A stretch of DNA of 64,000 nt from Escherichia coli. Its GTDB lineage: Bacteria > Pseudomonadota > Gammaproteobacteria > Enterobacterales > Enterobacteriaceae. Below, piece after piece: positions 51,274-57,200 of this stretch. Made by a program: the position numbers. The first letter of the stretch is position 1, and every line of letters begins with the position of its first letter. The stretch lies in assembly GCF_024502345.1 (NCBI RefSeq), contig NZ_JALDNN010000001.1. One strand, written 5' to 3'.

Positions 51274-54200
51274 TCACACTTTTTTGTCGTTAGCCAGCAA
51301 GAGCCGTTTACTGTTAATCTGTCAGGGAGTGTCCTCCCTAACAGTAGCAGAGATCTGCTTTTACATATTTATGCTTTAACTGCCACGATAGGTTGAATAC
51401 CCATATTGGCTAAGTAATAAAGGCACATGATAATGCTCGTTCACTTTATTAATATGAAATTCAACGGGGATCTCAGGGAAGAAACTTTCAAGATTTTGTT
51501 TCTTGAAATAGTCCCCGGTTTTAAATACGACACGGTAATCGCCAGTAGTCGCAGTTTGCTCGGGCCACAGTGCCTTAATTCGTCCATCCTTATCTGTTTT
51601 GGCGGTATTAAGTTGTAACCAGCCGTTATCCGCCTTCTTTTCAAGAGTGACTGTCACGTCAGCAGCGGGTTTTCCGGTTTGCTGGTTCAAAATGTGCACG
51701 CTAAGAATGTTTTGTTGTGCGGCATAAACCAAAGAAGGTAATGAAAATGCTGCCGTTGCTACCGAGAGTACTAAATAACGCTTTAACATGTTTATATCCT
51801 TGTCATGTGAATGAGTTTTGAGGATAGCGAAAAAGCGGCCAGGGTAACCTTACAGCAGCATTACAATTTTGTAATGAACCAGGCTGTTTCTATAACATAT
51901 GATTTATGGCATATTATTTTCATGAAGATTTTACTTATTGAAGATAATCAAAGGACCCAGGAGTGGGTAACGCAGGGGCTTTCCGAAGCGGGTTATGTCA
52001 TTGATGGGCTTTGTTGAATAAATCGAACTTTTGCTGAGTTGAAGGATCAGATCACGTATCTTCCCGACAACGCAGACCGTTCCGTGGCAAAGCAAAAGTT
52101 CAAAATCACCAACTGGCCCACCTACAATAAAGCCCTCATCAACCGTGGCTCCATAACTTTCTGGCTGGATGATGAAGCTATTCAGGCCTGGTATGAGTCA
52201 GCAACACCTTCTTCACGAGGCAGACCTCAGCGCTATTCTGACCTTGCCATCACGACTGTGCTGGTCATTAAACGCGTATTCAGGCTGACCCTGCGCGCTG
52301 CGCAGGGCTTTATTGATTCCATTTTTTCTCTGATGAACGTTCCGCTACGCTGCCCGGATTACAGCTGTGTCAGCAGGCGGGCAAAGTCGGTTAATGTCAG
52401 TTTCAAAACGCCCACCCGGGGTGAAATCGCACACCTGGTAATTGATTCCACCGGGCTGAAGGTCTTCGGTGAAGGCGAGTGGAAAGTCAAAAAGCATGGC
52501 CAGGAACGCCGCCGTATCTGGCGTAAGCTGCATCTCGCCGTTGACAGTAAAACACATGAAATCATCTGCGCTGACCTGTCGCTGAACAACGTTACGGACT
52601 CAGAGGCCTTCCCCGGGTTAATCCGGCAAACCCACCGGAAAATCAGGTCAGCCGCCGCCGATGGCGCTTACGATACCCGGCTATGTCACGATGAACTGCG
52701 GCGTAAGAAAATCAGCGCGCTTATCCCTCCCCGAAAAGGTGCGGGTTACTGGCCCGGTGAATATGCAGACCGTAACCGTGCAGTGGCTAATCAGCGAATG
52801 ACCGGGAGTAATGCGCGGTGGAAATGGACAACAGATTACAACCGTCGCTCGATAGCGGAAACGGCGATGTACCGGGTAAAACAGCTGTTCGGGGGTTCAC
52901 TGACACTGCGTGACTACGATGGTCAGGTTGCAGAGGCTATGGCCCTGGTACGAGCGCTGAACAAAATGACGAAAGCAGGTATGCCTGAAAGCGTGCGTAT
53001 TGCCTGAAAACACAACCCGCTACGGGGGAGACTTACCCGAAATCTGATTTATTCAACAAAGCCTCATTGATGCCGTTTCTGATGGCAGAGATGGGCTTTA
53101 TCTTGCGCTGAAGGATGATTATGCATTGATCATTCTGGATATTATGCTTCCGGGTATGGATGGCTGGCAGATCTTACAAACGTTAAGAACAGCAAAGCAA
53201 ACCCCTGTTATTTGCCTTACTGCAAGGGATTCTGTCGATGACAGAGTCAGAGGGCTGGACAGTGGAGCAAATGATTATCTGGTAAAACCTTTTTCATTTT
53301 CTGAGTTGCTGGCAAGGGTTCGGGCACAATTAAGGCAACATCACGCTTTGAATTCAACATTAGAAATCAGTGGCTTAAGAATGGACTCTGTAAGTCAAAG
53401 TGTGAGCAGGGACAATATCAGTATTACACTGACGCGCAAGGAGTTTCAGTTACTTTGGCTACTGGCCTCCAGAGCTGGCGAAATTATACCCAGAACGGTT
53501 ATTGCGAGTGAAATTTGGGGAATCAACTTTGATAGTGATACCAATACGGTGGGGCTTTGTTGAATAAATCAGATTTCGGGTAAGTCTCCCCCGTAGCGGG
53601 TTGTGTTTTCAGGCAATACGCACGCTTTCAGGCATACCTGCTTTCGTCATTTTGTTCAGCGCTCGTACCAGGGCCATAGCCTCTGCAACCTGACCATCGT
53701 AGTCACGCAGTGTCAGTGAACCCCCGAACAGCTGTTTTACCCGGTACATCGCCGTTTCCGCTATCGAGCGACGGTTGTAATCTGTTGTCCATTTCCACCG
53801 CGCATTACTCCCGGTCATTCGCTGATTAGCCACTGCACGGTTACGGTCTGCATATTCACCGGGCCAGTAACCCGCACCTTTTCGGGGAGGGATAAGCGCG
53901 CTGATTTTCTTACGCCGCAGTTCATCGTGACATAGCCGGGTATCGTAAGCGCCATCGGCGGCGGCTGACCTGATTTTCCGGTGGGTTTGCCGGATTAACC
54001 CGGGGAAGGCCTCTGAGTCCGTAACGTTGTTCAGCGACAGGTCAGCGCAGATGATTTCATGTGTTTTACTGTCAACGGCGAGATGCAGCTTACGCCAGAT
54101 ACGGCGGCGTTCCTGGCCATGCTTTTTGACTTTCCACTCGCCTTCACCGAAGACCTTCAGCCCGGTGGAATCAATTACCAGGTGTGCGATTTCACCCCGG

Positions 54201-57200
54201 GTGGGCGTTTTGAAACTGACATTAACCGACTTTGCCCGCCTGCTGACACAGCTGTAATCCGGGCAGCGTAGCGGAACGTTCATCAGAGAAAAAATGGAAT
54301 CAATAAAGCCCTGCGCAGCGCGCAGGGTCAGCCTGAATACGCGTTTAATGACCAGCACAGTCGTGATGGCAAGGTCAGAATAGCGCTGAGGTCTGCCTCG
54401 TGAAGAAGGTGTTGCTGACTCATACCAGGCCTGAATAGCTTCATCATCCAGCCAGAAAGTTATGGAGCCACGGTTGATGAGGGCTTTATTGTAGGTGGGC
54501 CAGTTGGTGATTTTGAACTTTTGCTTTGCCACGGAACGGTCTGCGTTGTCGGGAAGATACGTGATCTGATCCTTCAACTCAGCAAAAGTTCGATTTATTC
54601 AACAAAGCCATACGGTGGATGTCGCCATTCGCAGGCTCCGCGCAAAAGTTGATGATCCTTTTCCTGAAAAGCTAATCGCCACAATCCGGGGGATGGGCTA
54701 TTCATTCGTAGCGGTAAAAAAATAATGAAAAGATTATCTATAACCGTCCGTTTAACCTTGCTTTTTATATTGCTGCTGTCTGTTGCTGGCGCTGGAATTG
54801 TCTGGACTCTCTATAATGGCCTGGCAAGTGAGTTGAAATGGCGCGATGATACAACACTCATTAACCGGACAGCACAGATCAAGCAGTTGTTAATTGATGG
54901 GGTAAATCCAGATACGTTACCTGTATACTTTAACCGGATGATGGATGTTAGTCAGGATATCTTGATCATTCATGGTGATAGCATCAATAAAATTGTTAAC
55001 CGGACAAATGTCAGTGATGACATGTTAAATAACATACCTGCTAGTGAGACAATCAGCGCAGCTGGCATTTACAGAAGCATTATTAATGATACTGAGATTG
55101 ATGCTTTACGAATTAATATTGATGAAGTTTCGCCATCATTAACGGTTACTGTGGCTAAATTGGCTTCAGCCAGACATAACATGCTTGAACAGTATAAAAT
55201 TAATAGCATTGTAATTTGCATTGTCGCCATTGTACTTTGCTCAGTATTAAGTCCGCTGTTAATCAGAACGGGATTACGAGAGATCAAAAAGTTGAGTGGT
55301 GTAACGGAAGCGCTGAATTATAACGATAGCCGGGAGCCTGTTGAGGTTAGCGCATTACCGAGAGAACTAAAACCTCTTGGGCAGGCGTTGAATAAAATGC
55401 ATCAAGCCTTAGTCAAAGATTTTGAACGCCTAAGTCAATTTGCTGACGATCTCGCTCATGAACTTAGAACGCCCATTAATGCATTACTGGGTCAGAATCA
55501 GGTTACGCTCAGTCAAACCAGAAGTATCGCTGAATATCAAAAAACAATTGCCGGTAACATTGAAGAGTTGGAAAATATTTCGCGGTTAACAGAGAACATA
55601 CTGTTTCTTGCCCGGGCAGATAAAAACAATGTTTTGGTGAAACTGGACTCGCTTTCTCTCAATAAGGAAGTCGAAAATTTGTTGGATTATCTTGAATATC
55701 TTTCAGACGAGAAAGAGATTTTCTTTAAGGTCGAGTGCAATCAGCAAATCTTTGCGGATAAAATTTTACTGCAACGAATGTTATCGAATCTTATTGTTAA
55801 TGCCATTAGATATTCACCAGAAAAATCGCGTATTCATATAACCAGTTTTCTTGATACCAACGGCTATCTTAATATTGATATCGCCAGTCCTGGAACGAAA
55901 ATACATGAGCCTGAAAAACTCTTCCGTAGATTTTGGCGGGGAGATAATTCGCGTCATTCCGTAGGTCAGGGACTTGGTCTTTCTTTAGTCAAAGCGATTG
56001 CCGAATTGCATGGGGGAAGTGCTTCATATCACTATCTCAATAAGCATAATGTGTTCCGAATTACGTTACCGCAAAGAAATTAACATAGGGCTTCAGTACG
56101 CCATAAATTAACCGTGAAAAAACGCAGCCACGTCGTGAGTACTAACGCGGCTGCGATTAATTATGCGCTTACATTCAAACGTAACAGGGATTAACCCGCG
56201 TAAGCTGCCAGCATTTCCTGCGCCGCCAGTTTACCCAACGCATTCGCTGCGAAAGGACTGTCGCCGGTGAGAAGTTTACGGTCCTTATGTACTCGCCCGG
56301 TGATGTCGTCATTAATGATGTTCATGCCCATTTTCTTCAGCTCTTCGCCGAAGTACCAGGTGAGATGACCTGGCATATAGCCAATATCTGGCGTTTGTTT
56401 GTCTGCGGCGTCTGGGAATGCGCAAATGGAATAACCATTCAGTGGGTTATCGCCGTGGCGAAGCGCCAGAAAAGCCGCCGGGCCGTGGCAAAGGGAGATA
56501 ACAAAACGGTCATTTTTGATTGCCCACTGTAAAGCGGCAGCTACGTCCTGGCTTTCAGGTAAACCAATAAGTGCGCCATGACCACCAGGAACAAAGATTG
56601 CTGCATATTCGCTATCAGCGTTGAGGCTGGCGACAACATCCGCGAGTTTCTTCGGATTGCGGAACAACGATTTATGCTGCTCAAAGAATGGCATTACTTT
56701 TTCATCTTTGTGCGGCATAGCCCAGTATTCAAACTTGGTCATCAGACCGGAAATGGTCGCCACTTCGAATTCGAAACCTGCAGCATGGAGATGATACAAC
56801 GGCAGCAACGTTTCAATCGGATGGTTACCGGTCGAGAACAGTTTTCCGTTATCGGTTGGCAAATAACGTTCGTCCGCGGCGATCACCAGAATTTTATGCT
56901 TACCGCGATACGGTTTTGGATAGTCCACGCCATCAAGATCAGAGACGGGACTGGTATATTGGCTAAGCGAATATTCTGAAGGGAAGAACGCATTATCTTC
57001 AGCAATATCGACCTGCGGATTTTTACTTGTTTGAACAGTCATAGTGTATTCCTTATTGTTGCTTAGTTAGGGTAGTCACTATATTTGCGACTGAGCTGGT
57101 CGCTATTTTTAACCAGGCTGGAAAATTGAGTCAATATATCGAAAGCGGTAGTCGGCGGGTGTAAGTATGTAATGATGATGCTGCACTGGTGTTGAATATT

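Follow-up and report, generated by a model that had tools for sequence, protein, structure and literature searches.

Structure of the interrupted hprR locus

The 64,000-bp stretch analysed here, referred to as the window, is part of contig NZ_JALDNN010000001.1 of an Escherichia coli strain (RefSeq assembly GCF_024502345.1) and carries hprR, the gene of the HprSR (YedVW) response regulator, in three pieces separated by two copies of the insertion sequence (IS) IS903B. By direct reading, the 5′ fragment (nucleotides (nt) 1-85 of the gene) was located at 51922..52006 on the plus strand, its last 9 nt being the left copy of a target duplication, designated duplication A. Following IS903B copy A (52007..53063, plus strand), the middle fragment (nt 77-565; 53064..53552, plus strand) is retained in its native orientation and is 100% identical to intact alleles; its start is formed by the right-hand repeat of duplication A and its end by the left-hand repeat of a second duplication, designated duplication B. 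IS903B copy B (53553..54609, minus strand) is in turn followed by the 3′ fragment (nt 557-672, stop codon included; 54610..54725, plus strand), which opens with the 9-nt right copy of duplication B.

The gene was reconstituted in silico by taking out both IS903B elements together with one repeat copy of each pair. Joining 51922-52006, 53073-53552 and 54619-54725 resulted in 672 nt in frame, encoding 223 amino acids (aa) with no internal stop, as the first-pass annotation had claimed. The product was identical to WP_001339045.1, annotated as HprR in strains XDL and VTB97584v, and matched the NCBIfam equivalog NF008567 over residues 1-223 of 223 (483.3 bits, cut-off 353). At the DNA level, identity was 100% over 672 nt with the intact hprR of several complete genomes, M217 and SE11 among them, and none of the three fragments carried a substitution relative to the intact alleles of other strains. 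The earlier assignment to hprR is borne out by the NF008567 match and by a context that is as expected for HprR (YedW), with hiuH-msrPQ divergent, hprS overlapping downstream and the HprR/CusR box in the intergenic region.

Copy A interrupts the gene after nt 85 (codon 28/29), copy B after nt 565 (codon 188/189). Read from the native ATG, the present frame encodes 28 HprR residues followed by GLC and then runs into a stop inside copy A (31 codons), giving MKILLIEDNQRTQEWVTQGLSEAGYVIDGLC as the truncated product. Because translation stops after 31 codons, well ahead of the receiver-domain phospho-acceptor region, no functional HprR is possible. With no intact, expressible coding sequence left, hprR is a pseudogene and a null allele in this strain.

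The inserted elements

Copy A was delimited by sequence comparison, copy B by a repeat scan and direct comparison. Each measures 1057 bp, and the two are exact reverse complements over that length; the repeat finder gives 1060-nt arms, the match running 3 bases further by chance. The 18-bp terminal inverted repeats (GGCTTTGTTGAATAAATC) are perfect, and all four ends of the two copies are identical. Between their facing ends lie 489 bp, corresponding to a start-to-start spacing of 1546 bp. Copy A is directly abutted on both sides by duplication A (TCATTGATG), an exact 9-bp direct repeat at 51998-52006 and 53064-53072, and copy B is abutted in the same way by duplication B (ATACGGTGG), exact at 53544-53552 and 54610-54618. 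Given a perfect 1057-bp repeat bounded by two exact 9-mers, chance is not a concern. No further copy of the element was detected in the window.

An intact transposase open reading frame (ORF) is present in both elements. In copy A, the ORF (52039..53007, plus strand) encodes 322 aa from a TTG start codon and its product is identical to WP_000654812.1; in copy B, the same protein of 322 aa is encoded at 53609..54577 on the minus strand. This transposase matched the IS5 family model NF033579 (357 bits, cut-off 140), and its DDE domains were recognized in Pfam as DDE_Tnp_1_5 (PF13737) and DDE_Tnp_1 (PF01609). Over its full 1057 bp, the element showed 100% identity to numerous plasmid copies from Escherichia, Salmonella and Citrobacter, annotated in RefSeq as 'IS5-like element IS903B family transposase', and copies matching at least 80% of its length occurred in at least 5000 plasmid records, mostly of Klebsiella. 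On these matches the element appears to be IS903B, of the IS903 group of the IS5 family, the name being that given to identical copies by the RefSeq annotation pipeline (PGAP). The insertions are recent because the three hprR pieces are free of substitutions and both transposase genes are intact; presumably, both elements are still active.

These data agree with the first-pass annotation in describing two identical, inverted IS903-group copies about 490 bp apart, each with its own exact 9-bp duplication. The group could be narrowed to IS903B by means of the fully identical plasmid copies and transposase WP_000654812.1, and the end of the first copy, placed earlier at 53062, was corrected to 53063.

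IS903 elements generate 9-bp duplications, carry 18-bp inverted repeats and move mainly by cut-and-paste transposition. The 9-bp target duplication is also listed for IS903 in PMC2577343 (Table 1). Because the inner segment is colinear with the native gene and each element has its own direct repeat, hprR was with high probability inactivated by two sequential simple IS903B insertions, each generating its own 9-bp duplication. The gene would thus have been taken by two successive insertions of the cut-and-paste type, in opposite orientations, and no sequence-based evidence contradicting this was met.

Distribution of the allele

The interrupted locus was used as a query against 5,426 complete E. 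coli genomes, in none of which was a contiguous match over both inner hprR/IS junctions found. In the nearest-looking genomes, the IS903B copies interrupt hiuH or a porin gene or lie close to msrP, and none is in hprR, the separate matches having been joined by the search tool. The hprR gene was present in 5412/5426 of these genomes and contiguous in 5410/5426, the latter number indicating that a large insertion in hprR is rare. Similarly, exact matches to the six predicted truncated products (31, 68, 145, 139, 135 and 191 aa) were absent among 15 billion proteins, and 0 matches were obtained for the left outer junction in the GTDB species-representative genomes and for the right one in JGI metagenome contigs. 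A single-insertion precursor of the allele was not found in the genome, protein and metagenome searches. The allele is strain-specific.

Other losses of hprR do occur in public assemblies and metagenomes, in the form of point nulls without an IS. The substitution C37T (Gln13 stop, Q13*) was found in four loci (L003, L005, L010 and L011), G44A (Trp15 stop, W15*) in one (L012), and 1-nt frameshifts at the 5′ end in four more (L004, L006, L007 and L008), with hprR lying at about 2863-3534 of each of the loci L003-L012. Some of these nulls may be sequencing errors, and L008 has several split genes. In L009, a run of N occupies the 5′ end of hprR. Shortened HprR products of 177 and 171 aa, recorded on 72 and 43 contigs respectively, were considered as candidate single-IS precursors on account of their missing N-terminus, and proved to stem from alleles with a nonsense point mutation or a frameshift and no IS.

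Three further complete E. coli genomes have an IS903B insertion within hiuH, namely NZ_CP182383.1 (1777-2833 of the extracted locus, L001), NZ_CP070930.1 and NZ_CP156718.1. In addition, a relic consisting of hprR nt 323-672 and the first 435 nt of hprS is carried by the 192-kb plasmid NZ_CP182388.1 (6000-6784 of locus L014), where it adjoins IS3 and IS66 remnants, an S6-family peptidase gene and lpxM. In total, 8 plasmid places were matched by the hprR query. Given this plasmid-borne relic and the 8 plasmid places, pieces of the hprR chromosomal locus have moved onto plasmids before.

Origin of the double insertion

Inverted IS copies around a short segment resemble Tn903, and a single event, either the arrival of a pre-formed IS903B composite transposon or an inversion-type intramolecular replicative transposition, might therefore be thought of; its probability is close to nil. 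A composite transposon was rejected since it predicts one outer duplication and foreign DNA inside, whereas the outer flanks differ (TCATTGATG versus ATACGGTGG) and the inner 489 bp are native. Replicative inversion was rejected since it predicts an inverted inner segment and mismatched 9-mers, whereas the inner hprR segment is native in order and orientation and the 9-mers match. On this point, the colinear native inner segment and the direct repeats of each element uphold the first-pass annotation, which had favored two separate events over one composite insertion. An assembly that merged two subpopulations, each with one IS903B at a different hprR site, into one path is a conceivable objection to two insertions in one chromosome and is judged very improbable. 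In general, hybrid-assembly graphs with identical 1057-bp nodes can be mis-threaded, an argument with nothing direct behind it at this locus, and the strain looks IS-active because at least four IS insertions, the two IS903B copies included, lie within a 20-kb part of the window. On the other hand, the 64-kb window is unbroken through four IS copies, which suggests bridging by long reads, the junctions of both copies are clean and their duplications exact, and parallel hprR knockouts in one culture would need strong selection, to which nothing points. Selection for hprR loss in this lineage, by which the insertions would mark adaptation and not neutral decay, for instance to avoid a costly activation of hiuH-msrPQ or cross-activation of cus, is improbable as well. 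It draws on the independent nulls in public data (Q13* at four loci, W15* at one, 1-nt frameshifts at four) and on the IS903B copies inside hiuH in three other complete genomes. Against it stand the strong overall retention of hprR (found in 5412 of the 5426 genomes and contiguous in all but two of these), the share of point nulls that may be sequencing errors and the report that HprR promotes gut colonization and oxidative-stress survival in enterohemorrhagic E. coli (EHEC; PMC13064566); moreover, a second insertion into an already dead gene gains nothing. Under two successive simple insertions, the second one would have been selectively neutral, since it landed in a gene that was already dead.

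The sequence alone fixes neither the order of the two insertions nor whether the second copy descends from the first. The first-pass annotation had called the insertions independent, which stands insofar as they were separate events and does not stand as to independence, as the second copy may be a descendant of the first. Such a local hop, in which the first copy gave rise to a second one at a distance of a few hundred bp, for instance out of the sister chromosome after replication, is a serious possibility, though at rather less than an even chance. The IS903 transposase acts preferentially in cis and near its donor, and the two copies are 100% identical at 1546 bp from start to start, but the identity is uninformative because the same 1057 bp occur unchanged on many plasmids of several genera. 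The sites were further scored against the preferred IS903 target motif, WTTYA-N9-TRAAW, as given in a secondary source (PMC2577343 Table 1) and describing a preference, not a requirement. Scores were 4/10 and 3/10 against a mode of 3-4 across the window, that is, at background; a target-sequence hot spot was ruled out on this basis as an explanation of the clustering. A chance pair this close is unlikely at few genomic copies (0.06-2.7% for 2-10 copies) and plausible at 40 or more (38% at 40). How surprising two insertions 1.5 kb apart are thus depends on copy number, from 2.7% at 10 copies to 38% at 40. In E. coli mutation-accumulation data, IS1A and IS5A insertions cluster, often less than 1 kb from the donor (PMC5009759), but a re-analysis ties the clustering to complex events with deletions and finds simple insertions not significantly closer than random (PMC12065110). 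Finally, about 11 IS903B copies were counted within a few kb of hprRS across the 5,426 genomes, versus about 14 expected at random; this rough count rules out a regional hot spot around hprRS and at the same time speaks against local re-insertion. It is doubtful, if far from negligible, that the IS903B pair is a snapshot of short-range re-insertion as a simple insertion, forming a Tn903-like element de novo inside a dead gene. Should related isolates confirm a local hop, the locus would be a natural example of the birth of a composite transposon and a counter-example to the recently proposed lack of proximity bias among simple IS insertions in E. coli.

Expected effects on gene regulation

Upstream of hprR, the HprR-activated operon is complete on the minus strand. 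The first gene, hiuH (51376..51789), is intact and encodes 137 aa (NF011610, 295.5 bits, cut-off 217), and is followed by msrP (50263..51267), intact, 334 aa (NF003767, 507 bits, cut-off 207), and msrQ (49627..50262), the last gene, intact, 211 aa (NF003831, 240.9 bits, cut-off 130). The shared HprR/CusR box, CATTACAATTTTGTAATG, was located intact at 51859..51876, no strand being assigned; it is an exact match to the reverse complement of the published CATTACAAAATTGTAATG, the box sequence having been taken from the Fig 1 legend of PMC9302797. Downstream, hprS (54725..56083, plus strand) is an intact ORF of 452 aa that matched the heavy-metal sensor kinase model TIGR01386 (319.5 bits, cut-off 292.55) and is named hprS in syntenic genomes. 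Its ATG overlaps the hprR stop codon (TAATG).

Using an msrP reporter, hypochlorous acid (HOCl) was found to induce expression about 60-fold in an HprSR-dependent manner, while induction by copper was about 4-fold, CusSR-dependent and unaffected by hprRS deletion (PMC9302797). In the present strain, induction of hiuH-msrPQ by reactive chlorine species of the HOCl type should consequently be lost, while CusSR-dependent copper induction should be kept, provided that cusRS is present elsewhere in the genome; the latter is expected because the shared HprR/CusR box and the hiuH-msrPQ operon are intact. The earlier statement that induced msrPQ expression is lost thus holds for induction of the HOCl type and is too broad as a blanket loss, since copper induction needs CusSR (PMC9302797).

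As a result of the insertions, the distance from the hprR promoter to hprS has grown by 2.1 kb, and an early stop codon and 1 kb of antisense IS now stand between the two. A consensus scan of the region between copy B and the hprS start revealed no promoter-like site reading into hprS, the number of promoter-like sites in this region being equal to the shuffle expectation, and an outward promoter from copy B into hprS was rejected on this negative scan. Judging from this arrangement, strong polarity on hprS is likely, and hprS, having neither an upstream promoter nor translational coupling, is probably poorly expressed. Two considerations temper these expectations: some hprS transcript could still arise, either from a cryptic promoter or because transcription of the transposase gene reads through, and, as CusR binds the same box, basal or cross-activated expression of the operon could exceed what is assumed here.

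Other features of the window

The window is the his-cob-asn-yeeJ-hprRS-hchA region of the E. coli chromosome, placed by its RNA landmarks. These include the his operon leader (8540-8663), STnc240 (10960-11034) and the small RNA rseX (59063-59152), as well as tRNAs at 26186, 28595, 30419, 46121 and 47188 (four tRNA-Asn and one tRNA-Ser). Among complete RefSeq genomes none corresponds to the source of the window, the highest coverage being 95% of a 25-kb stretch at 98.5% identity.

Additional IS-related gene damage was observed around yeeJ. A 768-bp IS1 copy at 35861-36628 is 94% identical to the IS1 of strain VTB97584v. Beside it, about 800 bp are missing relative to that strain (18214-19012 of its locus L013), a loss that cuts short a family-9 glycosyltransferase gene as well as the inverse-autotransporter gene yeeJ, the latter at its 3′ end. 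An IS2-like element of the IS3 family lies inside yeeJ at 38357-39691, with orfA and orfB matching the IS2 TnpA and TnpB models below their cut-offs. In the window, the yeeJ sequence is broken up into three ORFs or more, all on the minus strand (36548-38440, 39652-43563 and 43791-45884). Elsewhere, an ORF of 186 aa (20552-21112, minus strand) matched only the N-terminal part, about 160 residues, of TonB-dependent receptors of the CirA/BtuB type and is probably a gene fragment.

Comparison with known insertions and implications

The outer ends of the pair, at 52007 and 54609, are correctly oriented, identical IS903B termini enclosing 2603 bp, and in principle the transposase could move this 2603-bp unit by means of the outer pair. 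Likewise, the perfect inverted repeats of 1057 bp would be a substrate for RecA-mediated homologous inversion of the inner fragment. Inversion or mobilization of this fragment, like polarity on hprS, had been suggested in the first-pass annotation and is a reasonable expectation. Long inverted repeats with a short spacer, of 489 bp in this case, may cause replication-associated instability in E. coli. The likeness to Tn903, in which two inverted IS903 copies flank aphA1, lies in two inverted copies of the IS903 group bracketing a short segment. In contrast to Tn903, the pair was not inserted as a unit, given its two different duplications and native inner segment, and the cargo is a useless, promoterless internal hprR fragment of 489 bp.

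Simple knockouts of a small regulatory gene or another chromosomal gene by the same element, with the same 9-bp duplication, are represented by mgrB::IS903B in Klebsiella pneumoniae, which confers colistin resistance, and wbaZ::IS903B, which confers phage resistance. The reservoir of the element is likely to be plasmids (PMC8796155, PMC9769513). Unlike those cases, the target is E. coli hprR, two insertions are present in one gene and the outcome has no known selectable phenotype. An IS903B allele of hprR was not found among those reported in the literature. Strain CH100 (MG1655 ΔhprRS::Cm, PMC9302797) has the phenotype expected here, with HOCl induction of msrP lost and CusSR-dependent copper induction kept; that strain is a laboratory deletion with which the regulon was defined, whereas the present allele is natural, still has the hprS coding sequence and has a phenotype that is predicted. 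The natural point nulls (Q13*, W15* and the 5′ frameshifts) affect the same gene with the same predicted loss of function and show that such loss is tolerated in nature, but consist of single-nucleotide changes without an IS.

Taken by itself, the allele is an ordinary, recent and strain-specific knockout by a very common IS, of a well-understood kind and involving no new mechanism; only the close pairing and the Tn903-like architecture make it mildly interesting. Its value lies mainly in the annotation and interpretation of the strain, in which hprR should be entered as null and hprS as probably silent. Hypochlorite-type oxidants would not be expected to induce HiuH or MsrPQ, which repairs methionine sulfoxide in the periplasm, and the weaker copper response would be kept. 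A recent study linked HprR to gut colonization and oxidative-stress survival in EHEC (PMC13064566), and hiuH-msrPQ has been linked to survival in the inflamed gut (PMC13252058). Because of these links, the hprR allele could affect host fitness. More broadly, the locus adds a further example of plasmid-spread IS903B eroding chromosomal genes.

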